40,345 nucleotides of DNA, taken from contig JAZDDZ010000034.1 of assembly GCA_043809245.1 (NCBI GenBank), positions 1-40,345 of the forward strand, written 5' to 3'. The DNA comes from Candidatus Iainarchaeum sp. GTDB taxonomy: Archaea; Iainarchaeota; Iainarchaeia; Iainarchaeales; JAZDDZ01. Every line of letters begins with the position of its first letter. Position 1 is the first letter of the stretch. Made by a program: the position numbers and the translations under genes. Below are positions 15,994 to 34,165 of this stretch, piece by piece. The notes beneath the pieces were generated by a model that did not search any database, was not told the origin of the DNA, and was given only the letters and a program-made list of their open reading frames with translations.

Positions 15994-17102
15994 AGCGCTG
16001 CCTCCCTTAATGCTTCAAGGACACATTTATCGCTGACTTCAACTCCATAATCTCCTTTGAATGAAATCATTTTCCCGATTTTTTGCGGCAAAACGAATTT
16101 CACTTTTCCTCCAATGGCTTTCTTGTCGTGCTTCATTTCTGCAAGAATTTTTTTCGCGGAAATGCCTTTATGCAGTGTTGTGTTTAAGCCAAACTCTTCC
16201 AATAAAACCCTTATCCTTAGTCCGCTCACCCAGCTCAGGCATGAAACCATTTCCGCAACCAATGCCTCAGCGTGAAGGCCAATTGCAACCGCTTCGCCAT
16301 GGGAAAATTTTTTGAAGCCAGTGGCTGATTCAATCGCGTGCCCTATTGTGTGGCCGAAGTTTAAAATTCTGCGTAGATTCTCTTCCTTCTCGTCTTTTTC
16401 AACAACCTCTGCCTTTATCGCGCAGTTTTTTGCGATTATTTTTTCAAGAACAGCCTCGTCGCGCTTAAGTATATTCTTTACGTTGCTTTCAAGAAAAGAA
16501 AAAAGCCTTTCATCCGCTATGATTGCGTGCTTTACGACTTCGCTCAGGCCATTCCTTAACTCTTTTTCAGGCAGATTTTTCAGCAGCGAAACATCAATGA
16601 ACACTTTTTTCGGCTGGTAAAACGCACCGGAAAAATTTTTCCCTCCCTTGATGTCAACCCCGGTTTTTCCGCCGATGCTGGAGTCAACCATTGCCAAAAG
16701 AGTTGTGGGCACCTGTACAAAGGGGATTCCGCGCATGAATGTTGCGGCGCAAAAGCCAGCTAAGTCTCCTGTTACCCCTCCGCCCAATGCAATTATGCAG
16801 TCTTTTCTGTCAAAGCCTTTTGCCAGCATTTTTTCCTGCAGCTTTTCAACAGTAACAAGGGTCTTGTGCTTTTCTCCTGCGGGAAAAACAATCAATTCGC
16901 ACGCCAATTTAATGCCTTTCATTTCCCCTGCAAATTTTTTGCCGATTTTTTTTCCAACATTTGAGTCAGTGATTATGGCGTACCTATTCCCGTATTTCTT
17001 TTTTTTCAGCTCCGCAGGAATTTTTTTCAGCAGGTTCCTTCCGATAACTATTTCGTAGGAGCTGTCAAATTTTCCCCTTAGTTTTACCCTGACTTTCTTC
17101 AT
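15990..17102 (-). CDS. aroB: 3-dehydroquinate synthase
   Basis: GEKHK, ALGGGVTGDLAGF.AATFMRG, VPTTLLAMVDSSIGGKTG, LNFGHTIGHAIE, HGEAVAIG. Confidence 0.97.
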   Translation of the reverse strand: MKKVRVKLRGKFDSSYEIVIGRNLLKKIPAELKKKKYGNRYAIITDSNVGKKIGKKFAGEMKGIKLACELIVFPAGEKHKTLVTVEKLQEKMLAKGFDRKDCIIALGGGVTGDLAGFCAATFMRGIPFVQVPTTLLAMVDSSIGGKTGVDIKGGKNFSGAFYQPKKVFIDVSLLKNLPEKELRNGLSEVVKHAIIADERLFSFLESNVKNILKRDEAVLEKIIAKNCAIKAEVVEKDEKEENLRRILNFGHTIGHAIESATGFKKFSHGEAVAIGLHAEALVAEMVSCLSWVSGLRIRVLLEEFGLNTTLHKGISAKKILAEMKHDKKAIGGKVKFVLPQKIGKMISFKGDYGVEVSDKCVLEALREAAL

Positions 17103-18910
17103 TTAACCGCCTTTTTCACAATGCCTTTCCGCTTCAGCCAGCCTATTATCCTTTTTACATCCTTTGGAATGCTTGTATCAGTCGTGTCAACCGTGAAATC
17201 TGCTGCGCTTTCATAGCTTTTCCGCCTTTTTTCCTTCATGAACTTAATCTCTTCCAGTTCATCCTTATCCGTGAGCCTTGGCCTGTTCTTGTCTCCCTTA
17301 ATCCTTTCCAATGTTTTTTCTGCGGAAGCCTCCAGTAATATAATTACTGCGTTCTTTTTAAGGTTTTCAATGTTCTCAGGCATTTCAACCACGCCCCCTC
17401 CTGTTGCAATGACTGTCCCCTGCATTTCGCTTGCCTCTTCAACTATTTCTTTTTCAATTTCCCTGAAGCCCCGTTCTCCCTTATCCCTGAATATTTCCGG
17501 AACAGCCATTCCGCTCATTTCAACAATCATTTCATCAGTGTCAACGAAATCCATTTTTAGCTTTTCCGCCAGGAGCTCGCCAATCTTTCCCTTTCCCGTG
17601 CCCCTGTATCCAATCAGCGCAATGTTTTTTATCCTTCCAAGCGATTCAAGCACGCTGAAAAATTCCGGAAAGCTCTTGTTCACGCATTCAGGATTCCTTA
17701 TTTTCACGCCTTTAACCCTCAAACCCGCAACAGCGAAAGCCATTGCAATTCTGTGGTCATTATAGGTTTCAATTTCAGCGCCATGCAGGGCCTGCGCCCC
17801 TCCTGTGATTTCAATTCCATCCTTCAATTCCCTTGCCTTTGCCCCGATTCTTTTCAGTTCATTCACAGTTGCGGTTATCCTGTCGCTTTCCTTCAATCGC
17901 AGATTGCCTATGTTCTTTATCTTTGTTTTCCCCTTCGCGAAAGCGGCGACAACAGCAAGCGTCATCGCGACATCAGGCATTCCAGCCATCTCCACATTCA
18001 CTGCCTTCAATTTCCCTTTCTTCGGCCCGCTAACTTCAACAAAACCCCTTTCTTTTTTCACCATGCAGCCCATTTTTTTCAGAATTTCTAAAAATTTCCT
18101 GTCGCCCTGCGCGCTTTTCGGGTTAAGGTTTTCCACGCGCACGCTTCCGCCCGAAATTGCCGCTGCAGCGAAAAAATATGATGCACTGGAGTAATCGCCT
18201 TCAACAGCGTAATCCCTTGCCTTGTACCTCTGCCCTGCCTTCACAAGGAATTCCCTGTAGCCATTATTCCCCACTTTCACCCCAAAATCCTTCATTACCC
18301 CAATCGTCAATTCAATGTAAGGCTTTGAAGCAAGCTTTCCATTCACTTTAACCGAAACGTTTTTTTTCGCAAAAGGCGCAGCCAAAAGCAGCGAGCTGAG
18401 GTACTGCGAACTCTCCTCTCCTCTAAGCGAAGTTTTCCCGCCAATTAAGCCGCTGCCGAAAATCCTGTAAGGCGGGCAGCCGTTTTTCTTCACGCTTTCC
18501 GCTTTCACCCCCAGCTTTTTCAGCGCTTCAAGCAATTCTTTAATTGGCCTCTGCTGCATTCGCTTGTCGCCTGAAACCGTAACGCTTCCATTTTTTGCAA
18601 GCGCTGCAACCGATGCAAGAAACCTTGAAGTCACGCCTGAGTTGCCTACAAAAATTTCTTTTTCCGGCGCTGAGATTTCTCCACCTGAACCAAAAACAGT
18701 GGCTTCCTTCCCATTTATCTCTATTTTCACACCCAATGCCCTTAACGCATTGATTGCATGCAATTGGTCTTCCGCCAGAAGGCAGTTGTGCAGAGCGCTT
18801 TTTCCCCGCGCCAATGCGGCAACAAACAGTGCCCTCAAAGTGTAAGCCTTTGAGGGCGGCGCTGAAACAATCGCGTCCAATTTCTCCGCTGGCCTGATTT
18901 CAATCGACAC
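17099..18910 (-). CDS. aroA: EPSP synthase fused to a C-terminal bacterial-type shikimate kinase (AroA-AroK)
   Basis: PPSKAY..R, GNSG..SRF, RM.QRP, SSQYLS, LRLKESDR, DHRIAM, KSFPEFF, then NIALIGYRGTGK, DTD, GE..FR..E, ATGGG. GTG start at 18910 follows a GGTGA SD; the ORF-track start at 18955 overlaps the HEPN gene. Confidence 0.93.
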   Translation of the reverse strand: MSIEIRPAEKLDAIVSAPPSKAYTLRALFVAALARGKSALHNCLLAEDQLHAINALRALGVKIEINGKEATVFGSGGEISAPEKEIFVGNSGVTSRFLASVAALAKNGSVTVSGDKRMQQRPIKELLEALKKLGVKAESVKKNGCPPYRIFGSGLIGGKTSLRGEESSQYLSSLLLAAPFAKKNVSVKVNGKLASKPYIELTIGVMKDFGVKVGNNGYREFLVKAGQRYKARDYAVEGDYSSASYFFAAAAISGGSVRVENLNPKSAQGDRKFLEILKKMGCMVKKERGFVEVSGPKKGKLKAVNVEMAGMPDVAMTLAVVAAFAKGKTKIKNIGNLRLKESDRITATVNELKRIGAKARELKDGIEITGGAQALHGAEIETYNDHRIAMAFAVAGLRVKGVKIRNPECVNKSFPEFFSVLESLGRIKNIALIGYRGTGKGKIGELLAEKLKMDFVDTDEMIVEMSGMAVPEIFRDKGERGFREIEKEIVEEASEMQGTVIATGGGVVEMPENIENLKKNAVIILLEASAEKTLERIKGDKNRPRLTDKDELEEIKFMKEKRRKSYESAADFTVDTTDTSIPKDVKRIIGWLKRKGIVKKAVK

Positions 18911-18914
18911 GTTT

Positions 18915-19355
18915 TCACCTTTTTTGCGCATTAGCCAATTTTTCAACCGCTTCAATGAATTCCCTGCAGAATTCGATCATTTCCTCTGCATCTTCTTCGT
19001 TTGGCGAATAACTGACGTCGTATTGCGTGTGGCTTCTTTCGGCCTTGAACCTGTCAAGAAGGTCTATGAATGTTTCCGGCAACAATTTTGCTTTGGCGTA
19101 TTTTTCTTCAAGGTAACGGATGACGCACTCGTGGCTTTTCTCTGTCAAGCCATCCTTGAAAAGAAGCGCTCTGGCGGCATGAAATAATGCAAGGTAGGAT
19201 ACAATCACTGCGGAATTTATTCTTCCGTCGCCGAGGTCTGCTTCCGCCTCAGTAAGCAGTTCTTCCGCTTTCCCTATGCTTTGCATTGCCTTTTGCTTTG
19301 AAGCGGGAATTCGCTTGAGCAATCCCTGTTTAAGGCATTCTTCAACGTTAATCAA
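18915..19355 (-). CDS. HEPN domain protein (toxin partner of MNT)
   Basis: A..L..A..DL.....NSAV..SY.A.FHAARALL...G..EKSH, R...QY. Probable TTG start at 19355 overlapping the MNT stop. Confidence 0.85.
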   Translation of the reverse strand: MINVEECLKQGLLKRIPASKQKAMQSIGKAEELLTEAEADLGDGRINSAVIVSYLALFHAARALLFKDGLTEKSHECVIRYLEEKYAKAKLLPETFIDLLDRFKAERSHTQYDVSYSPNEEDAEEMIEFCREFIEAVEKLANAQKR

Positions 19356-19970: not shown

Positions 19971-20764
19971 GCGGCTTTCTTCATTTCTGCAAGGTATGCG
20001 CCTAATTCTTCAAGCATCTTTTCACAGTTGCCAATGTTTCTCTCAATGATTTTTTCCACCGCGCTTCCCACAATCGCGCAGTCAGCCCCCGCAGCGCAAA
20101 CCGCCTGAACGTGCTCCTGCTTTGAAATTCCAAAACCAACGCACAAAGGCAGCTTTGTGTGCGGCCTGACCTTTTTTATCAGGGAAACTGTTTCAGTGCC
20201 CAATTCGCTTCTCTCACCCGTAATTCCAAGCAATGAAACAAGGTAAACAAAGCCCGAAGCCTTTGACAAAATTTTTTTCATGCGCTGCGGCGTAATTGTT
20301 GGCGTCACCAAAAAAACCTGGTTCAAGCCCGATTTTTTTGCTGCCTTCAAAAGCGGTTTAGATTCCTCAACCGGCGCATCAGCTGCAAGAACTGCGTCAA
20401 CTCCCGCTTCCTTTGCCTTTGCGTAAAATGCGTCAATTCCGTTTGAGTAAATTAAATTGTAATACACAAGCAGCCCGATTGGAATTTCCGCATCCAGTTT
20501 CCTGATCTCATTAATAAGTTCAAAGCACTTATCTGAATTCATTCCATTCGCCAAAGACCTTGTGTCCGCTGCCTGGATTGTTTTTCCGTCAGCAATCGGG
20601 TCAGAGAAAGGGAAACCCAACTCCAACGCGTCCGCGTGCTTGAGCAATTCCTTCACAATCTCAAGAGATGTCTCATAATCAGGGTCGCCTAAAACAACAA
20701 ACGGCATCAAACCCTTTTCGCCTTTTTTGCGCAGCTCCGCAAAGCGTTTTTCATAGCGGTTCAT
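19955..20764 (-). CDS. trpA: Tryptophan synthase alpha subunit
   Basis: PFVVLGDP, LELGFPFSDPIADGKTIQ.A, LLVYYN, YLVS..GITG, VGFGIS, IVGSA. Confidence 0.97.
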   Translation of the reverse strand: MNRYEKRFAELRKKGEKGLMPFVVLGDPDYETSLEIVKELLKHADALELGFPFSDPIADGKTIQAADTRSLANGMNSDKCFELINEIRKLDAEIPIGLLVYYNLIYSNGIDAFYAKAKEAGVDAVLAADAPVEESKPLLKAAKKSGLNQVFLVTPTITPQRMKKILSKASGFVYLVSLLGITGERSELGTETVSLIKKVRPHTKLPLCVGFGISKQEHVQAVCAAGADCAIVGSAVEKIIERNIGNCEKMLEELGAYLAEMKKAAVYKT

Positions 20765-21501
20765 TTTACACGCCTCCTTCCAAAAAGGGTCATTTTTTTC
20801 TTTACCTTTAGTCTCGGTTTACCCGGGATTGGGGCGGTTTTTTTTATTTTGTGGGCTGGAATTCCATAAAGAATCTCCGTTGTCCTCGGGTTTATTTCCA
20901 AGCGCCTGCCATTCCTGAAAAGATTTTTATATAATACAAAAGGAATGTTTCTAAGGGTGCCGCGTTCCTTATCGTAATGAATTTTTGGTTCCCTCGTTGA
21001 AAATTCACTGCGGAGTTCCGGTATATCTAATGCTCTAACCAAGTTTCCCATCATGTCAGGCAGGCAAGGGCATGAGGCAATCACGGTTTCACCATGCCCT
21101 TCAATCCTTAATTTTTTTTTGTCAAAAGACAAATTTTTACGTTCAATGGCTTCGCGGAACATTTGGGGCGATATATCAAGGAATGAATTCCCTGAGAGCA
21201 CGATAAGCCTTTCTTTCGGGATATGCGTAATTAAGTATTTGAATAACCTGTCCTGCCTCGGGATCCTTTCTTCATTCATTACCAAAAAAAATGCAGTGTT
21301 TGGATTAGAGAACTTGCTTTTCATATCCCTGCCTATTTGATTGGCTATTTCTGCGGCTAATTTTTGTGGATTTATTGAATAGTTTCTAAAATTAAGGGTT
21401 TCATAATATGTTTCACCTTTTTCGCTTTCAGGATCCACAAGCAATCCGAATGCAGGATGCACAATCAATTCAATCTTGTCAATTGGGATCGGCTTGCTCA
21501 A
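20761..21501 (-). CDS. Hypothetical ORFan inserted between trpB and trpA
   Basis: Long open frame. Probable TTG start at 21501 overlaps the trpB TGA (TTGA), and the stop overlaps the trpA ATG (ATGA). AT-richer codons; no family recognised. Confidence 0.65.
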
Positions 21502-22691
21502 ATCTCTTCCCCCGATAATTCTTTTGCCGCGTGGAAAATGTCCTTGTCCCCGCGGCCGCTTAAATTGATTATTATTATGTCGTTTTTTTTGCATTTTTTC
21601 GCGTACTTGACAGCGTAAGCCATTGCGTGCGCTGATTCAAGCGCGGGAATAACGCCTTCCTCTTCGCTTAACAGCTTGAACGCATCAAGCGCTTCCTTGT
21701 CTGTTGCGTAAGTGTATTTCGCCCTTCCCATTTCACGCAGCATTGAGTGCTCAGGCCCAACTGCACTGTAATCCAATCCAGCGCTCACGGAATGCGTGTT
21801 GAAAATCTGACCGAACTTGTCCTGCAAAACATAAGTCAGTGTGCCGTGCAATACGCCTTTCCTTCCGAATTTTGGGTCAGCGAACCTTGCCGCGTGCTTT
21901 CCGCTTTCAATCCCCAAGCCGCCTGCTTCAACTCCAATCAATTCCACGCCTTTGTCATCCAAAAAGCCCTTGAATATTCCAATCGCATTGCTTCCGCCTC
22001 CCACGCATGCAATAACCGCTTTCGGAAGCCTTCCCTCTCTTTGCATTATCTGTTTTCTTGCCTCTTTCCCGATGCAGCTCTGGAAGTATGCAACCATTGA
22101 AGGGTAAGGGTGGGGGCCCAAAACAGAGCCAAGCAAGTAATGCGTTGTCCTGACGCTTGCAGTCCAGTCACGCAGGCATTCGTTGATTGCATCCTTCAAT
22201 GTCTTTGAGCCGGTTGCAACCGGATTAACCTTTGCTCCCTGCAGCCTCATTCTGAAGACATTGGGCTTTTGCCTTTCAATGTCAACCGTGCCCATATAAA
22301 TTTCCGCGTCCAAGCCGAGCTTTGCGCCTGCAGTTGCAACCGCTGTGCCGTGCTGGCCTGCGCCTGTTTCCGCGATGATTCTTTTCTTGCCCATTTTTTT
22401 TGCCAAGAGCGCCTGCCCAAGTGCGTTGTTTATTTTGTGCGCGCCTGTGTGAGCCAAGTCCTCGCGTTTAAGGTAGACTTTGCACCCTAACTTTCTGCTT
22501 AAATTGTCAGAAAATGTCAGCGCTGTTGGCCTTCCCACGTAATCCTTGAGCAGGCCGTCAAGCTCTTTGTTGAATTTCTTGTCTTTCTTGAACTTCAAAA
22601 AAGCGGCTTCAAGCTCCTCTAACGCGGGCATAAGCGTTTCCGGCACGAATACCCCGCCATAGCCTCCGCGAAATTTTCCAAGCGATTTCAT
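21498..22691 (-). CDS. trpB: Tryptophan synthase beta subunit (TrpB1)
   Basis: [66 protein letters not shown]. Confidence 0.98.
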
Positions 22692-25096: not shown

Positions 25097-25603
25097 TCAC
25101 AGCCCTAATTCATCCATAAGCTTTCTTACTTCTTCGATATATAACCTATTAATTAGATTAGTCTTGGCGTGCATGCTGTATTGTTTTTCTGTTTCCAAAA
25201 AAATTCTTTTAACAATCGCATCATAACATTCCCCTGTTTTTCTTGTTATTTCTTCAGATGGTTTGCCTACAATGCGCCTTCCTTCAGTTAGTGCCGAGCT
25301 GTTCTGTGCGGCTGCTTCATGCTTTGATACTTTTTCAAGCAGTAGGTTCCATAAGATCGCCCCGACATTGTTTAGTGCGCTTTTATATGAAGCCATTTTA
25401 AATGGCGCGATTACTCCTGCATTTTTTATAATTTTGTAGGATTCATCAAGCCGTGTTATTTTCTCTTCAATGAGTTTCCTTGCATTTTCTTTGTGTGCAA
25501 TGTTTGCAAACTTTTTCATGGCAATTTTAACGGGAATTGCGCTAATCCTATACGTTAAGTTTGAAGTCATTCTCTTTATGCGGGGCATTATCTTTCCCAT
25601 CAA
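25097..25603 (-). CDS. Hypothetical ORFan inserted between trpG and trpD
   Basis: 168-aa basic, probably helical ORF whose start overlaps the trpG stop (TTGATG). AT-richer codons; no family recognised. Confidence 0.6.
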   Translation of the reverse strand: MMGKIMPRIKRMTSNLTYRISAIPVKIAMKKFANIAHKENARKLIEEKITRLDESYKIIKNAGVIAPFKMASYKSALNNVGAILWNLLLEKVSKHEAAAQNSSALTEGRRIVGKPSEEITRKTGECYDAIVKRIFLETEKQYSMHAKTNLINRLYIEEVRKLMDELGL

Positions 25604-26175
25604 ATCAACCCAATCAAGTTTTCAATTATTTTTCCGCCTTCGGGTGTCATAATGCTTTCCGGGTGGAACTGCACTCCCTCAACAAAGTATTTTTTGTGCC
25701 TTACAGCCATAACAACTCCGCTCTCGGTTTTCGCAGTAACCTTTAACTCGGAAGGAATTTTCAGGCCTGAAAGCGAATGGTAGCGGCCAGCCTGAAAAGG
25801 GTTCTCCAGGCCGTTGAATATATGCTCGTTGTCATGTGAAATCATTGAAGGCTTTCCATGGATTGTTTCAGGGCACTTGCCCACAATTCCCCCAAACGCC
25901 TCAACAATCGCCTGGTGCCCCAAGCACACGCCTAAAATAGGCAGCACGCCCTTGAATTCCCTAATAACTTCAAGGGAAATTCCAGCATCCTTTGGCGCAC
26001 TCGGCCCCGGGGAAATCACTATCAACTTCGGCTTGAATTCCTTAACCACTTCGTAAATTTTTTCCATCGGCGTATTGTTCCTGTAAACCAATACATTGCA
26101 TCCGCGCTTTTCAAATTCATCAACCAAATTGTAGGTGAAAGAGTCAAAGTTGTCAATGAACAAAATGTTTTTCAT
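25600..26175 (-). CDS. trpG: Anthranilate synthase component II (glutamine amidotransferase)
   Basis: IDNFDSFTYNL, ISPGP, GVCLGHQ, RYHSL, GVQFHPES. Confidence 0.96.
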   Translation of the reverse strand: MKNILFIDNFDSFTYNLVDEFEKRGCNVLVYRNNTPMEKIYEVVKEFKPKLIVISPGPSAPKDAGISLEVIREFKGVLPILGVCLGHQAIVEAFGGIVGKCPETIHGKPSMISHDNEHIFNGLENPFQAGRYHSLSGLKIPSELKVTAKTESGVVMAVRHKKYFVEGVQFHPESIMTPEGGKIIENLIGLI

Positions 26176-27797
26176 CGCCTTGCACTCTCCGCCAACTCAA
26201 TTGCCTTAATGCACGCTCGCGCCTTTTTCTCCGATTCAATGAATTCCTTTTCCGGAACCGAGTCAAAAACAATTCCCGCGCCGGCGCGTGTGACTGCTTT
26301 CCCGTTTTTCAGGCGCATGCACCTGATTGCAATGCACGAATCAAAGTCCCCTGCTGGCGTTAAATAGCCAACGCTTCCACCGTAAAATCCGCGCTTTGTT
26401 TTCTCATATTGCCTTATGAGCTTCATTGCCTCAACTTTCGGCGCGCCGGTCAAAGTGCCCATGTTCATTGACGCAAGGTAAGCATGCAATGCATCAAAAC
26501 CTTCCTTTAGCTCGCCTTTCACATTTGAAACAATGTGCTGCACGTGTGAGTATTTTTCCACAATGTAAGGCTTGTCCACGTGCCTTGTTCCCGCTTTGCA
26601 TACTCGTGCTACATCATTCCTTGCCAAATCAACAAGCATTGTGTGCTCAGCCAGTTCCTTTTCATCAAGCTTTAATTCGGTTTCAAACCTTGAATCTAAG
26701 TCTGCGTCAAGCTTTCCATTAACATATCCACGTGGCTTTGTTCCGGCAATAGGCCTGATTTCAACTGTTTTGGCTCCGTTGCCTTCAATGCGGATGAATG
26801 TCTCAGGCGAACTCCCAAGCAATACTCCTGTTGACTGATTTAAGTAAAACATGTAAGGCGAGGGATTAAACCTGCGCAGTTCTGCGTAAATTTCCAATGG
26901 CTCCGCGGAATAATTTGAAGTTATTGTGCGCGAAAGCACTAACTGGAAAACATCGCCGGCAAAAATGTTTTCCTTGGCTTTTTTCACCATTTCAACGAAT
27001 TCCTTTTCGCTTGTGTCAGTGGAAACCCTTGGCTTTGCTTTTTCCGCTTTCCACTCCTGTTTCGCTTCAATTGTTTCAGCCGAATGGAATTTTTTCTCCA
27101 GCCCATCCAGCTTTTTTTCGCATTCATCGGCAATCTCTTTGAATTCTTCGCCGAACACAAGCGCATTTGCTATTAACAGCAGTTTTTTTTGTTTGTGGTC
27201 CAAGGTGAAAAGAGAATCGTGAAAGCATAACTCGTAATCAGGCTCTTTCAGCTCATCGCGCTCGTTTTCCGGCAGTTCCTCAAACTGGTCAATGAAGTCA
27301 TAGGAGATGTTGCCAAATAATCCAGCGAAAGGCGCCAGCGGCTTGTCTTTCGGTGGCTTTAACTTGAATGCAATCGCACGCAAAATATCGGCGTGCGTTT
27401 TAAGCTTCAGCCTTTCTTCCTCGGAAAAACTCCCTTTTTTCTGCGAAAGCCTTCCTGAAATGCTTTTTTTGCCTGCGCTTACTTCATCGCAGAAAGAAAA
27501 ATCATCCGCAATGGAGTCAATGAATTTTTCACCCAGAGAATTCAGCGCGCGAATTTCAAATTCTGCTTTTCTTCCAGTCACCTTAACGCAGGGTTCGCTT
27601 GACCCAATGCTTTTCTCGCCGTACCTTGTTATGATGTCAGCTGACTCCAGGAGCATTGAATTCTCTTTTCTGCCGTAATCCGATAGCTCAGCGAAAAATG
27701 AGAGAGCATCAGGGCTGCCGCTGCCTAATCCAATTTCCCGCACAATTGGCGTGATTGAGCCTTTTCCTGCATTTGCAATTTTTTCTTCTATTTTCAT
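26172..27797 (-). CDS. trpE: Anthranilate synthase component I
   Basis: LLESA, GDVFQLVLSR, NPSPYMF, GSSPE, PIAGTKPRG, KELAEHTMLVDLARND, MNMGTLTGAPK, AGAGIVFDS. Confidence 0.96.
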   Translation of the reverse strand: MKIEEKIANAGKGSITPIVREIGLGSGSPDALSFFAELSDYGRKENSMLLESADIITRYGEKSIGSSEPCVKVTGRKAEFEIRALNSLGEKFIDSIADDFSFCDEVSAGKKSISGRLSQKKGSFSEEERLKLKTHADILRAIAFKLKPPKDKPLAPFAGLFGNISYDFIDQFEELPENERDELKEPDYELCFHDSLFTLDHKQKKLLLIANALVFGEEFKEIADECEKKLDGLEKKFHSAETIEAKQEWKAEKAKPRVSTDTSEKEFVEMVKKAKENIFAGDVFQLVLSRTITSNYSAEPLEIYAELRRFNPSPYMFYLNQSTGVLLGSSPETFIRIEGNGAKTVEIRPIAGTKPRGYVNGKLDADLDSRFETELKLDEKELAEHTMLVDLARNDVARVCKAGTRHVDKPYIVEKYSHVQHIVSNVKGELKEGFDALHAYLASMNMGTLTGAPKVEAMKLIRQYEKTKRGFYGGSVGYLTPAGDFDSCIAIRCMRLKNGKAVTRAGAGIVFDSVPEKEFIESEKKARACIKAIELAESARR

Positions 27798-27823: not shown

Positions 27824-27896
27824 TGGGGTCGCAGGGATTTGAACCCTGATCAGCTGGTCTGGAGCCAGCCGCACTGCCTGGTTATGCTACAACCCC
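27824..27896 (-). tRNA. tRNA-Trp(CCA), intronless, 3' CCA not encoded
   Basis: Cloverleaf: acceptor GGGGTTG/CGACCCC plus A73, D-stem GCAT/GTGC, anticodon arm GCTGG-CTCCAGA-CCAGC, T-arm CAGGG-TTCAAAT-CCCTG. Confidence 0.95.
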
Positions 27897-27919: not shown

Positions 27920-28031
27920 TTAGCGCCAGCGCCACGAATAAGCGCTGAAAAAAGGAACTAAAAAATTTGCCTTGCGGAAGCTAAAAAGACCTAGAAAATC
28001 AGTGAAGCCAAAGTAAATCGCCTGAATTCAT
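27920..28031 (-). promoter_or_regulatory. Putative trp leader/attenuator: uORF MNSGDLLWLH* (28031-27999) plus overlapping +1 frame ending YSWRWR* (stop 27922-27920)
   Basis: ATG lies 30 nt downstream of the TTTAAATA box. Trp codons at 28010, 27934 and 27928, U-tracts, and alternative GC-rich stems cover the WRWR codons. Confidence 0.6.
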
Positions 28032-28061
28032 GCTTCCACTCAAAAATTCTGCTGCATCATT

Positions 28062-28076
28062 TATTTAAAGCTTTCC
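28062..28076 (-). promoter_or_regulatory. BRE/TATA promoter of the leader-tRNA-Trp-trp transcript
   Basis: Minus strand reads GGAAAG-C-TTTAAATA. Confidence 0.7.
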
Positions 28077-28083
28077 CTGCGGC

Positions 28084-29376
28084 TTAACCGCCGAGCTCTT
28101 CATAGCTCTCGATTTTTCCATCTGGCTTTAGCTTGAAGGCAAAGGTCATTTTGTTGATTAAAACCATTGCCTTCCAGCCGGAATCGGTTTTCTGCATGCT
28201 CGTTATCTTTATTTCCTTGTCCGAGCCGAGCTCTGTTTTTAATGTGAAAAGAAGGTTTAGCTTTGCTGTTCCGTCATCCGACAAGGCAAGCTTGCTTTCC
28301 TGCTGTTTTGCTGCAGGCTCTGGCGCCATAGGCCTTGCCATTGGTTTTGGCGCAATCTGCTGAGGCTGCTGCGACGCTTTCGTTTCCTGCTGTTTTTGCA
28401 CTGGTTTCCAGCTTTCTTCAGGAGGCGCGAAGCCTGAGCCCATTATTTCGCGGTAAATGCCGACCGTCATAAGTGAAAAAATCAGGACGCTGAAAGCTGA
28501 AATAATAAAGCTTGAGATAAACGTTGAAACGTAAACCAAAGCGTAATACATTAACAGCCCGGCGATTTGCTCTGACCCAAGCACGGATATGCTTGAGGCT
28601 CCTGCCACTGAAGGCGCGCTTATTCCGGTTATCGCCGAAAGCGGCAGAAGGATAATCATTTGCAGCACAACCTGGATGATTCCCAAAACAATTGCGCTGA
28701 CTATTCCAACAACAATCATTGCAAGCAGAATTGAAAGCACTTTTCCATCAGTCATTTTCCAAGATGATTTAATTGCGTCAATTATTCCAATGTCCTTATG
28801 CAGGTAAATGACCGGAGACATTGACAGCCTTAAAGAATTGTAAATTACTATTATTCCGTAAACAAGCAAAAGCAGAAAAGCCAGGATAGCCAGAATCCAG
28901 CCAGCGAATAGTGCGATGATTAATATTACAACCGCTGCTGCCAAAACAAGCAGTAACTTCAAATCCAATGCCGAAAAAATTGCGGCAAAAAATTGCACTA
29001 TTACAAGCAAAACAAGCTTCAGGTATTTAACCAATGAAAACTTCGCGGGCTCTATTCCTGCCTTTTTCAAGCCATAAATTGTAACAAGCGCGTTAACGTA
29101 ATAGCTTACCAATGCGAAAACTATTCCAATCAGTGCCGCAAAAGCAATGAAAAGAAACAAATTGCTCAAAAGCACGATAGGGTTGGTTAAAAGCTGCGCC
29201 AAACTTGCCGGATTGCTTATCAGTGAGGAAATTAAATCCCCAAAAAGCAACCAGCCAATGCCGATAATTAGAAGCCATTCAATTGCGGTGATAACCCATA
29301 GGAGCACAATGTACTTCCATGCAGCCCTGTCCTTGAGCCAGGAAAAGGAAAACAGCAGAATCTTTTCGTAGTCCAT
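28084..29376 (-). CDS. Multi-pass hypothetical membrane protein with soluble C-terminal domain
   Basis: Several TM segments, a ..DAIKSSWKMTDGK.. motif typical of this membrane-domain type, a Q/P-rich linker, and its own TATA box (TTTAAATA at 29414-29407). Confidence 0.75.
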   Translation of the reverse strand: MDYEKILLFSFSWLKDRAAWKYIVLLWVITAIEWLLIIGIGWLLFGDLISSLISNPASLAQLLTNPIVLLSNLFLFIAFAALIGIVFALVSYYVNALVTIYGLKKAGIEPAKFSLVKYLKLVLLVIVQFFAAIFSALDLKLLLVLAAAVVILIIALFAGWILAILAFLLLLVYGIIVIYNSLRLSMSPVIYLHKDIGIIDAIKSSWKMTDGKVLSILLAMIVVGIVSAIVLGIIQVVLQMIILLPLSAITGISAPSVAGASSISVLGSEQIAGLLMYYALVYVSTFISSFIISAFSVLIFSLMTVGIYREIMGSGFAPPEESWKPVQKQQETKASQQPQQIAPKPMARPMAPEPAAKQQESKLALSDDGTAKLNLLFTLKTELGSDKEIKITSMQKTDSGWKAMVLINKMTFAFKLKPDGKIESYEELGG

Positions 29377-33367: not shown

Positions 33368-34015
33368 TCATTTCTTCGGAACCTTTGCCCAGTCATCCAA
33401 AAATCTCTTTATACCCGCATCAGTCAGTGAATGCCTGAACATTTTTGAAAGAACGTCAAACGGAACAGTCGCGATGTGCGCCCCCATTTTCGCTGACTCC
33501 ACGACATGAATCGGGTGCCTTACGCTTGCAACAATCACTTCAGTTGCATAACCATAATTCCTGAATATTTCCATTATTTCCTTTATGAGCGCCAAGCCAT
33601 TCTCTCCCTGGTCGTCTAATCTTCCAACAAAAGGGCTCACATAGCTTGCGCCTGCCTTTGCCGCGAGCAAAGCCTGGTTTGCTGAGAAAACAAGCGTCAC
33701 ATTGGTTTTGATTCCCTCTTTTGCGAGCTTTTTCACTGCCTTCAATCCTTCGGCTGTCATTGGAATTTTCACGACAACGTTTTTGTGAATCTTCGCAAGT
33801 TGTTCGGCTTCTTTCACCATTTCCTCTGCTTTTTCGCTGACTGCTTCCGCGCTTATCGGGCCATCAACAATTGAGCAAATCTCCTTGACGACTTCCTCAA
33901 ATTTCCTGCCCTCTTTTGCCACAAGCGTGGGATTCGTTGTAACGCCGTCAATTACCCCCCATTCATTTGCCTTTTTTATTTCCTCTATATTCGCTGTATC
34001 CAAAAAAATTTTCAT
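33368..34015 (-). CDS. tal: Transaldolase (TalC/FSA family)
   Basis: [51 protein letters not shown]. Confidence 0.95.
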
Positions 34016-34037
34016 ATCTATACCCCTTTTGTTTTCG

Positions 34038-34069
34038 GCAACCCGCCCAAAAAAGCCTTGAGCAGTTGC
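34038..34069 (-). promoter_or_regulatory. Leader hairpin directly after the aromatic leader peptide stop
   Basis: GCAAC-U-GCUCAA...UUGGGC-(G)G-GUUGC stem enclosing a U6 run, 22 nt upstream of the tal ATG. Confidence 0.65.
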
Positions 34070-34165
34070 TTATTGAAAAAAGTAAGCAAAATAGTAATAA
34101 AAAGCCTTATCTGAGGCAGTCTCTTCCGTCCAAAGATAATCCCTGCCACAAACAACCGCTTTCAT
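34070..34165 (-). CDS. Putative aromatic-amino-acid leader peptide MKAVVCGRDYLWTEETASDKAFYYYFAYFFQ
   Basis: 31-aa uORF about 25 nt downstream of a TATA box (34200-34191). Eight of the last ten residues are Phe or Tyr. It lies upstream of tal-pheA-tkt-aroF. Confidence 0.75.
   Translation of the reverse strand: MKAVVCGRDYLWTEETASDKAFYYYFAYFFQ

Follow-up and report, generated by a model that had tools for sequence, protein, structure and literature searches.

The window analyzed here is a stretch of 40,345 nucleotides (nt) from Candidatus Iainarchaeum sp. (GenBank assembly GCA_043809245.1, contig JAZDDZ010000034.1, our contig C34), which belongs to a genome of 1.48 Mb with a completeness of 92%. 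It carries two neighboring aromatic operons, both of which, leaders included, lie on the minus strand (Table 1). In the first operon a leader is followed by tal, pheA (CM-PDT-ACT), a split transketolase (tkt), DAHP synthase and an unknown open reading frame (ORF) of 430 amino acids. In the second, the leader precedes a tRNA-Trp gene, the sole one found in the genome, and then trpE, trpG, an unknown ORF, trpD, trpCF, trpB and trpA, with more aro genes after these. The closest relatives of the TrpE protein come from archaeal metagenome-assembled genomes (MAGs) labeled Iainarchaeum, Woesearchaeota, Nanoarchaeota or 'archaeon' (54-60% identity), and the next-closest from planctomycetes (45-53% identity); going by these labels and identities, we take the host to be a DPANN archaeon with trp genes resembling bacterial ones. 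Both leaders contain an in-frame GAU-NNN-CUU-UGG, which an earlier reading made from the letters and translations of this DNA (hereinafter the sequence-only reading) had singled out as a shared slippery site, and its sequence, coordinates and frames are as that reading gave them. We propose that this cassette is probably a programmed +1 frameshift site of the RF2 kind, at which the supply of Trp-tRNA, and not RF2, sets the delay in the A site, and that in related archaea genes for tryptophan supply appear to be turned on through this very site.

The consensus of the cassette is A-G-N-G-A-U-U-N-A-CUU-UGG, with an ATG 15 or 18 nt 5' of CUU. Its strict form, RGNGAT-NNN-CTTTGG, has four matches on the two strands of the 1.48-Mb genome. 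Two of these are the aromatic leaders, and a further one (C23:45870) lies in the +1 frame within a long ORF; the remaining one (C10:50015), on a strand without a long ORF there, was taken as chance. A scan of the genome for an element like a Shine-Dalgarno (SD) sequence followed by NNN-CTT-TNN in short ORFs gave six matches, among which the two aromatic leaders alone are convincing. The presence of one cassette in both leaders is not a matter of chance. In all 29 cassettes analyzed across this and related genomes the Leu codon is CTT, which makes up 29% of the Leu codons in the long ORFs of this genome; as no locus with adequate upstream sequence had any other Leu codon, this invariance is not an artifact of the search. 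The codon ahead of CTT varies (TTA, TCA, CGA, TGT, TGC, TTT), and that in the A site is UGG in every cassette. The SD-like NGNGAU, 3 nt 5' of CUU, has G-8 and G-6 in 29/29 and A-5 in 28/29 cassettes, these being positions that the search expression partly forced. The 3' end of the 16S rRNA (..GGATCACCTCCTT) is complementary to GGUGAU, and an SD role of the element is plausible. The genome encodes a tRNA-Leu(GAG). As a separate observation on codon pairs, CTT-TGG accounts for 48 of the 208 Leu-Trp pairs in the long ORFs of this genome (G000) against about 61 expected from CTT usage, and TTA-TGG is over-represented (53 against about 28 expected); the deficit could mean that ordinary genes mildly avoid the slippery pair.

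The distribution of the cassette was followed in 196 genomes of the same order of DPANN archaea, 56 of which encode TrpE. It stands upstream of trpE in 25 of the 30 best TrpE loci, and the other five end at a contig edge, one of them with a partial site at its first bases. Among 17 further TrpE loci, four have the cassette, one is cut by the contig end and 12 lack it, these last including all seven loci with a distant type of TrpE (about 40% identical). The pattern ATGN{3,9}RGNGAKTNACTTTGG gave 31 matches in 30 of the 196 genomes, against two for a reversed-pattern control. Altogether, at least 44 of the 196 genomes have the cassette beside Trp genes or tRNA-Trp, and at two loci (L160, L186) it stands ahead of tRNA-Trp in genomes where the TrpE query was negative. 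Beyond the order, a search of 185,579 species genomes for the 18-nt core of the cassette gave 47 stretches: 18 of them come with a short ORF, and these are all in archaeal MAGs and all have trp genes or tRNA-Trp downstream, while one of the other 29 is near a trp gene. Outside the order but within its class, 19 genomes gave one match, of a type regarded as chance. These 29 stretches, the loci L181, L241, L242 and L243 and the AGGGATTGACTTTGG matches in family f30 were likewise set aside as chance. Kinship within families inflates the raw counts, and per-family figures are given as well where frames are compared. An assembly error is ruled out by the recurrence of the arrangement in at least 44 genomes, and transcriptional slippage by a T run of only 3-4 nt.

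In about 20 of 25 related loci (L112-L140), as in the window, the tRNA-Trp gene separates the trp leader from trpE, and a TATA box of the TTTAAATA type is found 30-42 nt 5' of the ATG of the short 0-frame ORF (ORF1) at 28 of 29 loci. The usual archaeal spacing between TATA box and transcript start puts the latter about 8 nt before this ATG. The position of the TATA box thus makes ORF1 the 5'-proximal start, so that an internal ORF without a start codon would be reachable only from ORF1. The sequence-only reading had proposed that CUU-UGG, the identity of its Leu codon and the open +1 frame be followed in orthologous leaders. For the trp leader all of this is borne out, with CTT in 29/29 cassettes and an uninterrupted +1 frame that is the longest in 29/29 loci; for the tal leader the site is found in 0/5 relatives.

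At these 29 loci the +1 frame past the cassette runs for 27 to 135 codons, with the 0 frame closing 1-7 codons past UGG and the -1 frame within 0-15 codons. If each of the ten families is represented by one locus, the Fisher combined P for the length of the +1 frame is 0.0013, and the probability of its being the longest in all ten is (1/3)^10. As to the content of the frame, in 17 of 23 loci of the tRNA or leader type, at least two of its last eight codons encode Trp (with ends such as ..SWHWQ, ..FWVWVWRCS and ..PWLWAWFTP before the stop), an amino acid that takes up 1% of the codons genome-wide. No ATG, GTG or TTG precedes the first Trp codon of the +1 ORF in the window (L111) or in L114, L117, L127, L129, L132 and L140. 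In one family (six gap-free sequences, 16 codons), pairwise differences, with codons counted in the +1 frame, number 59 at the first position, 46 at the second and 103 at the third, and this excess at third positions is the signature of a translated frame. The view that the +1 frame past the cassette is selectively kept open, with its Trp codons or an enzyme ORF, is supported by these findings.

At several loci the +1 frame is itself an enzyme. In L158 TrpE lies entirely in this frame (447 codons, N-terminal Pfam domain from residue 14), and there is no ATG, GTG or TTG from codon -4 to +76; the cassette is fused to TrpE in L238 and L239 of the same family as well. The +1 frame encodes TrpE in L215 too, and a TrpB2-like enzyme in L216, L240 and L188, the last of which (genome G145) has an ATG at codon -6. 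L224 has a pair of cassettes separated by 100 nt. The second stands in the frame that a +1 slip at the first would open, and its own +1 frame is TrpD (N-terminal domain from residue 19), without a start codon from codon -25 to +59. Tandem cassettes are also present in L132, where the stop of the last +1 ORF forms an ATGA overlap with the ATG of trpE. Finally, in L159 the +1 frame is a SerK-like ORF of 122 amino acids upstream of a TrpB-like gene, with no start codon from codon -5 to +26. This cassette-fused ORF, which also occurs in L192, resembles the N-terminal part of the ADP-dependent serine kinase SerK (E 4e-14, under the family cut-off), and may supply phosphoserine to a TrpB2-type enzyme.

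In the trp leader of the window, the +1 frame reads ...SAYSWRWR before a TAA at 27922-27920, as the sequence-only reading had it in naming WRWR and a stop as its end, and the +1 ORF is devoid of any ATG, GTG or TTG. A predicted hairpin, P1, has a 5' arm spanning the transcript start region and the AUG of ORF1, and its loop holds the shift site in the predicted fold. Equivalent pairings of different sequence are predicted in most relatives, with z-scores against shuffles that are negative in 23 of 25 (mean about -1.4); these come from duplex prediction locus by locus. When 30 cassette regions were aligned with plain MAFFT, RNAalifold yielded no consensus structure, because the 5' arm of P1 stands in different registers. 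Three oligo-T tracts in the +1 ORF are putative terminators, and tracts of at least five T recur in 19 of 23 tRNA-type +1 ORFs, with a density of 9.3 per kb, compared with 5.1 per kb in the genome as a whole.

The cassette of the tal leader agrees with the trp consensus, and the +1 frame, which the sequence-only reading had described as open through the hairpin to a stop just ahead of the tal ATG, is indeed so, with 37 codons past the slip. The cassette is, however, absent from all five relatives with an aromatic leader ahead of tal, whose +1 frames have stops. These leaders have Trp codons within the aromatic run in L002, L003, L016 and L024, and not in L007. Their Phe/Tyr-rich runs are comparable to that of the window, whose codons at 34093-34078 are paired in the predicted fold with the SD/start region of tal (34030-34015). 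Pairing of this type, masking the ribosome-binding site (RBS), is seen in the minimum free energy (MFE) folds of L002, L003 and L024 and not in those of L007 and L016, that is in four of six leaders including the window. Most likely, judging by these folds, the Phe/Tyr codons act by ordinary stalling that unmasks the tal RBS. The Trp codon lies ten codons 5' of the run, too far for a stall on it to free the tal RBS in the same way. The sequence-only reading had also drawn attention to UUU-UAU and UUU-UUU within the run; their positions are right (34102-34097 and 34081-34076), but frameshifting there is unsupported, as neither a conserved stimulator nor the relatives speak for it and ordinary stalling accounts for these codons. 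A Trp-responsive cassette in this leader makes biological sense, as Trp synthesis also draws on DAHP synthase and the enzymes of the pentose-phosphate pathway. While we regard the trp cassette as very likely functional, for that of the tal leader we lean towards function with some reserve. The 5' untranslated region of the tal leader is probably only about 4-5 nt long, as judged from the usual archaeal spacing between TATA box and start.

The conserved cassette, the layout of the frames and the gene neighborhood are observed; they suggest the following course of events, in which the slip, its dependence on Trp-tRNA and both outputs in the window are inferred. Translation of the short ORF would start a few nt from the 5' end of the transcript, and at about codon 7-11 peptidyl-tRNA-Leu would come to stand on CUU in the P site, with Trp-tRNA awaited at UGG. 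If Trp-tRNA is ample, UGG would be read and the 0 frame would go on, in the trp leader to a stop two codons later within the P1 loop, and in the tal leader into the Phe/Tyr run. If it is scarce, tRNA-Leu would re-pair on UUU, one base forward, aided by the SD-like NGNGAU, and GGN would be next in the +1 frame. Because the A-site codon is always UGG and the cassette turns up solely beside Trp genes or tRNA-Trp, we infer that the supply of Trp-tRNA sets the rate of this slip. In relatives with an enzyme ORF (TrpE, TrpD, TrpB2) in the +1 frame, the slip would directly allow synthesis of the enzyme. In the trp leader of the window, the shifted ribosome would translate 29 more codons over the 3' arm of P1 and the three T5-6 tracts, to meet a second Trp checkpoint at the WRWR-stop, 23 nt before tRNA-Trp; translation of the T tracts would prevent oligo-U termination of naked RNA, so that transcription continues. 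This output, with its blocking of oligo-U termination and its W-x-W checkpoint, is the least secure step of the proposal. In the tal leader, the shifted ribosome would skip the Phe/Tyr run, open the helix over the tal RBS and terminate 2 nt before the tal AUG, at which reinitiation would follow. Melting of the hairpin and covering of the U-tracts by shifted ribosomes, which the sequence-only reading had already envisaged, would be part of this course. In the broader picture that we favor with moderate confidence, the order possesses a modular Trp recoding switch: the charging of tRNA-Trp would set the slip at an RF2-like cassette, which would control enzymes and, in many genomes, tRNA-Trp itself, and could be grafted onto other leaders, such as that of tal-pheA-DAHP synthase.

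Several observations weigh against this proposal. Taken alone, the open +1 frame of the trp leader is not significant (shuffle P 0.28) and that of the tal leader is weak evidence (shuffle P 0.078). Across the tal coding part, resampling of synonymous 0-frame codons never closed the +1 frame, since the codons of the residues after Trp cannot create +1 stops. Among the six aromatic tal leaders examined, this genome alone has the cassette. The SD-like elements AGGGAU, GGCGAU and AGUGAU match the rRNA at 4-5 of six positions, with G, C or U at the third. Six of the 23 tRNA-type loci have no W-x-W in the +1 ORF, and the enrichment of T tracts there is only modest. In AGTGAK cassettes codon -3 of the +1 frame is a GTG, a possible start that needs no slip (L136, L138, L143, L147), and one relative outside the set of 29 loci (L033) has CGC-UGG and nonetheless a +1 ORF of 67 codons open to the start of trpE. 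A scan for sigma-70 promoters and intrinsic terminators detected nothing of the kind in the two leaders, and its matches did not exceed those in shuffled sequence; being of a bacterial type, it carries little weight for archaeal leaders. As archaeal termination signals differ, the missing hairpin-plus-U-run does not speak against control of transcription.

The simplest alternative is ordinary stalling attenuation without any recoding, in which UGG and the Phe/Tyr run are stall sensors that remodel the RNA and the open +1 frames are coincidental. It is in keeping with the aromatic-rich leader ORFs ahead of tal in five relatives that lack the cassette, with the predicted pairing of the aromatic run to the tal RBS, with the classical WWW leaders of the bacterial relatives of this TrpE, and with the insignificance of the open frame at a single locus. 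We nevertheless find it improbable, as coincidence would have to account for a +1 frame that is longest in 29/29 loci and ends in W-x-W in 17/23, often without a start, for start-less enzyme ORFs in that frame, for tandem cassettes, for the invariant CTT and for the clustering of +1-frame substitutions at third codon positions. The +1 ORFs might instead be initiated independently, from the GTG of AGTGAK or from non-canonical codons, with ORF1 as an overlapping upstream ORF whose Trp codon tunes initiation. A GTG does stand at +1 codon -3 in L115, L121, L130, L135, L136, L138, L143 and L147, and G145/L188 has its ATG at codon -6; but most cassettes (AGGGAT, GGCGAT, GGGGAT) have no such codon, and L111, L114, L117, L127, L129, L132, L140, L158 and the second cassette of L224 lack an ATG, GTG or TTG to start from. 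Moreover, stalling at UGG would place the ribosome over the GTG and so repress initiation, the wrong direction for a response to starvation, and we accordingly give this alternative quite a low probability.

A frameshift could also be real and yet constitutive, serving fixed low expression or the joining of ORF1 to the true leader peptide, with any sensing of Trp left to the W-x-W checkpoints that most tRNA-type loci possess. What makes this unlikely is that UGG occupies the A site of every cassette and that the cassette occurs only beside Trp genes or tRNA-Trp; the enzyme fusions, and the loci lacking W-x-W, would then have no other sensor of Trp. Slow decoding in the A site is, moreover, the established driver of such +1 shifts in the account given by the sections on this topic in a 2016 review (PMC5009743). 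We consider it very improbable that the ORF1 peptide, (R/G)-D-x-L-W, instead arrests the ribosome as TnaC does, by sensing free tryptophan within the exit tunnel, without a slip. There is partial conservation at the protein level, with D or E at -3 and invariant L and W; the nucleotides, however, fit better (G-8 and G-6 in 29/29, A-5 in 28/29) than the residues, which vary at -4 (R/G/S/C) and -3 (D/E/G). The peptide is just 7-12 residues long at the Trp codon, and the +1 ORFs would be left unexplained.

The known system closest to the frameshift cassette proposed here is RF2 (prfB), where, in the treatment of that gene in PMC5009743, CUU re-pairs on UUU, a 5' SD sequence acts as stimulator and efficiency is set by the slow reading of UGA in the A site. 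Measured against this treatment, the cassette shares a short 0-frame ORF, a CUU that could re-pair on UUU, an A-site codon that starts with U and would be slow to decode, a start-less main ORF in the +1 frame and a product that would relieve the slow step; the SD-like element a few nt 5' is a putative stimulator. The slippery CUU followed by U is present in 29/29 cassettes, both leaders of the window included, and the start-less main ORF in TrpE of L158, TrpD of L224 and L159. It differs in that the A-site codon is the sense codon UGG throughout, never UGA, so that the molecule sensed would be Trp-tRNA and not a release factor; in its archaeal host; in its targets, which are TrpE, TrpD, TrpB2, a tRNA gene and leader ORFs; and in the tandem cassettes. 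With UGG in place of UGA, the cassette falls outside the prfB family, though it apparently works alike. Relative to autoregulatory frameshifting of the RF2 type, the sensed molecule, the targets and the domain of life would be new.

Hungry-codon +1 shifts and the CUU_AGG_C site of yeast Ty1 are also described in PMC5009743, and in that description tRNA-Leu likewise slips +1 on CUU while a scarce aminoacyl-tRNA is awaited. Ty1, however, depends on a constitutively rare tRNA and yields a fixed product ratio, and the starvation frameshifts of E. coli are regarded as errors, whereas the cassette would be an evolved sensor tied to the pathway of the scarce amino acid. With trpL and pheL of E. coli and the WWW leaders of planctomycetes it shares an upstream ORF that reports the supply of charged tRNA, alternative RNA pairings, and tandem regulatory codons, namely WRWR in the trp +1 ORF and FYYYFAYFF in the tal leader. 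An ORF of tandem codons with its own start is present in the tal leader for Phe/Tyr, whereas that with the Trp codons of the trp leader is start-less and would be reached only by the slip. Neither an intrinsic terminator nor an antiterminator of the trpL type was found in the leaders, their hairpins having no trailing U-run. According to the passage on pheL in the same review, a frameshift there (CCC_UGA) was an earlier candidate for opening downstream mRNA and was judged incidental, and the archaeal frameshifts in its listing are few, mostly -1 or viral (PMC5009743). The output proposed for tal brings to mind a further type, in that its RBS is predicted to pair with the regulatory codons of the leader and a ribosome on these would free it. 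Leaders of the erm type act by translational attenuation through unmasking of an RBS, with an antibiotic as inducer; in the tal leader the inducer would be the lack of charged tRNA, and a second route via the +1 frame would be added. Antizyme frameshifting is eukaryotic, senses free polyamines with UGA in the A site, and exerts negative feedback through a different output. Common to it and the proposed cassette is that the metabolite controlled by the pathway sets the efficiency of the shift and that a regulator of the enzyme lies in the +1 frame; antizyme has brief mentions in PMC5009743.

Programmed frameshifts known to serve as metabolic sensors are few (RF2, antizyme), and hungry-codon shifting has been regarded either as an error or as an effect seen in the laboratory; a full-text literature search returned no description of a frameshift sensor based on Trp codons, of leader-peptide control of archaeal trp genes, or of such a cassette. 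If the proposal is true, this would be the first natural amino-acid sensor built on hungry-codon frameshifting and the first tRNA gene under a translated leader, with a squared response expected of the tandem cassettes. Given a conserved Trp-codon version and enzyme ORFs that depend on the frameshift, a long-discussed idea would become directly testable, and archaea, which do not as a rule use hairpin terminators of the bacterial kind, would have a means of attenuation-like regulation. For annotation, start-less TrpE, TrpD and TrpB2 are likely to be called truncated or to be missed, and predictions of auxotrophy in DPANN archaea to be distorted as a result. The cassette of about 15 nt could also serve as a portable Trp-responsive switch.

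Table 1. Features of the two aromatic leaders and adjoining genes in the window
Feature	Position	Strand	Remark
tal leader TATA-like box TTTATTTAAA	34191..34200	-	ends 26 nt ahead of leader ATG
tal-operon leader ORF, 0 frame	34070..34165	-	ATG 34165 to TAA 34072-34070; MKAVVCGRDYLWTEETASDKAFYYYFAYFFQ, stop
5' hairpin around tal cassette, predicted	34100..34163	-	5' arm begins at leader start codon; MFE fold
tal SD-like element AGGGAT	34139..34144	-	3 nt 5' of slippery codon; fits cassette consensus
tal shift site	34130..34135	-	CUU (P site) 34135-34133, UGG (A site) 34132-34130; part of in-frame GAT TAT CTT TGG, 34141-34130
tal +1 path	34018..34134	-	after Leu 37 codons, TAG 34020-34018, 2 nt before tal ATG (34015)
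Phe/Tyr codon run FYYYFAYFF	34076..34102	-	classical stalling sensor; comparable runs in five relatives
Helix masking tal RBS, predicted	34015..34093	-	34093-34078 pairs with 34030-34015; MFE fold
Hairpin past tal leader stop, predicted	34038..34069	-	contains U6 tract; no U-run beyond stem
tal (transaldolase family)	33368..34015	-	opening gene of operon tal, pheA, split tkt, DAHP synthase
trp leader TATA box TTTAAATA	28062..28069	-	starts 38 nt 5' of ORF1 ATG
P1 hairpin, predicted	27974..28039	-	5' arm 28039-28027, 3' arm 27985-27974
trp leader ORF1, 0 frame	27999..28031	-	ATG 28031 to TGA 28001-27999; MNSGDLLWLH, stop
trp SD-like element GGCGAT	28017..28022	-	3 nt 5' of CUU
trp shift site	28008..28013	-	CUU 28013-28011, UGG 28010-28008; part of in-frame GAT TTA CTT TGG, 28019-28008
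trp +1 ORF	27920..28012	-	after Leu: GFTDFLGLFSFRKANFLVPFFSAYSWRWR, stop; Trp codons 27934-27932, 27928-27926
Three oligo-T tracts in trp +1 ORF	27948..27987	-	T5 27987-27983, T6 27965-27960, T6 27953-27948
tRNA-Trp (CCA)	27824..27896	-	23 nt past +1 ORF stop, 26 nt ahead of trpE
trpE	26172..27797	-	then trpG, unknown ORF, trpD, trpCF, trpB, trpA

Some further structures accompany the trp leader and its tRNA gene in relatives. At the planctomycete trpE loci (L038-L069) there is a classical leader peptide, typically MRQINRKNTGNWWWPxG followed by a stop; the archaeal trp genes seem to have kept bacterial-like enzymes but a different leader. The tRNA-Trp genes at several related loci contain introns of 26-136 nt. 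Downstream of tRNA-Trp, eight loci (L114, L116, L117, L119, L121, L122, L128, L129) have a long pyrimidine/purine hairpin, CCTTTTTCTTTCTCTT...AAGAGAAAGGAAAAAG, of which the window has no counterpart; a third purine copy past the hairpin could pair with the pyrimidine arm instead, and the whole may serve as another switch, or as a terminator, ahead of trpE. Between the stop of the +1 ORF and tRNA-Trp, L117 and L128 share a conserved kink-turn-like hairpin, GCCTATCGAGCCC...GGGCGAAGATAAGGC, with a looser variant in L139, and a short GC-rich hairpin lies immediately 5' of the tRNA in L114, L117, L118, L139 and L140. In the single-contig genome with L115, the +1 frame is open for 135 codons, through repeated GTAAACGG...CCGTTTA hairpins and the tRNA-Trp gene, to the start of trpE.

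In the window as a whole, Rfam at the gathering threshold matched the tRNA alone and no leader or riboswitch family. Three minus-strand ORFs within the aromatic operons have no match in Pfam or NCBIfam: those at 28084-29376 (430 amino acids), 25097-25603 (168 amino acids) and 20761-21594 (277 amino acids), the last of which overlaps the end of trpB. At 17099-18955, also on the minus strand, EPSP synthase and shikimate kinase are joined as one ORF of 618 amino acids.

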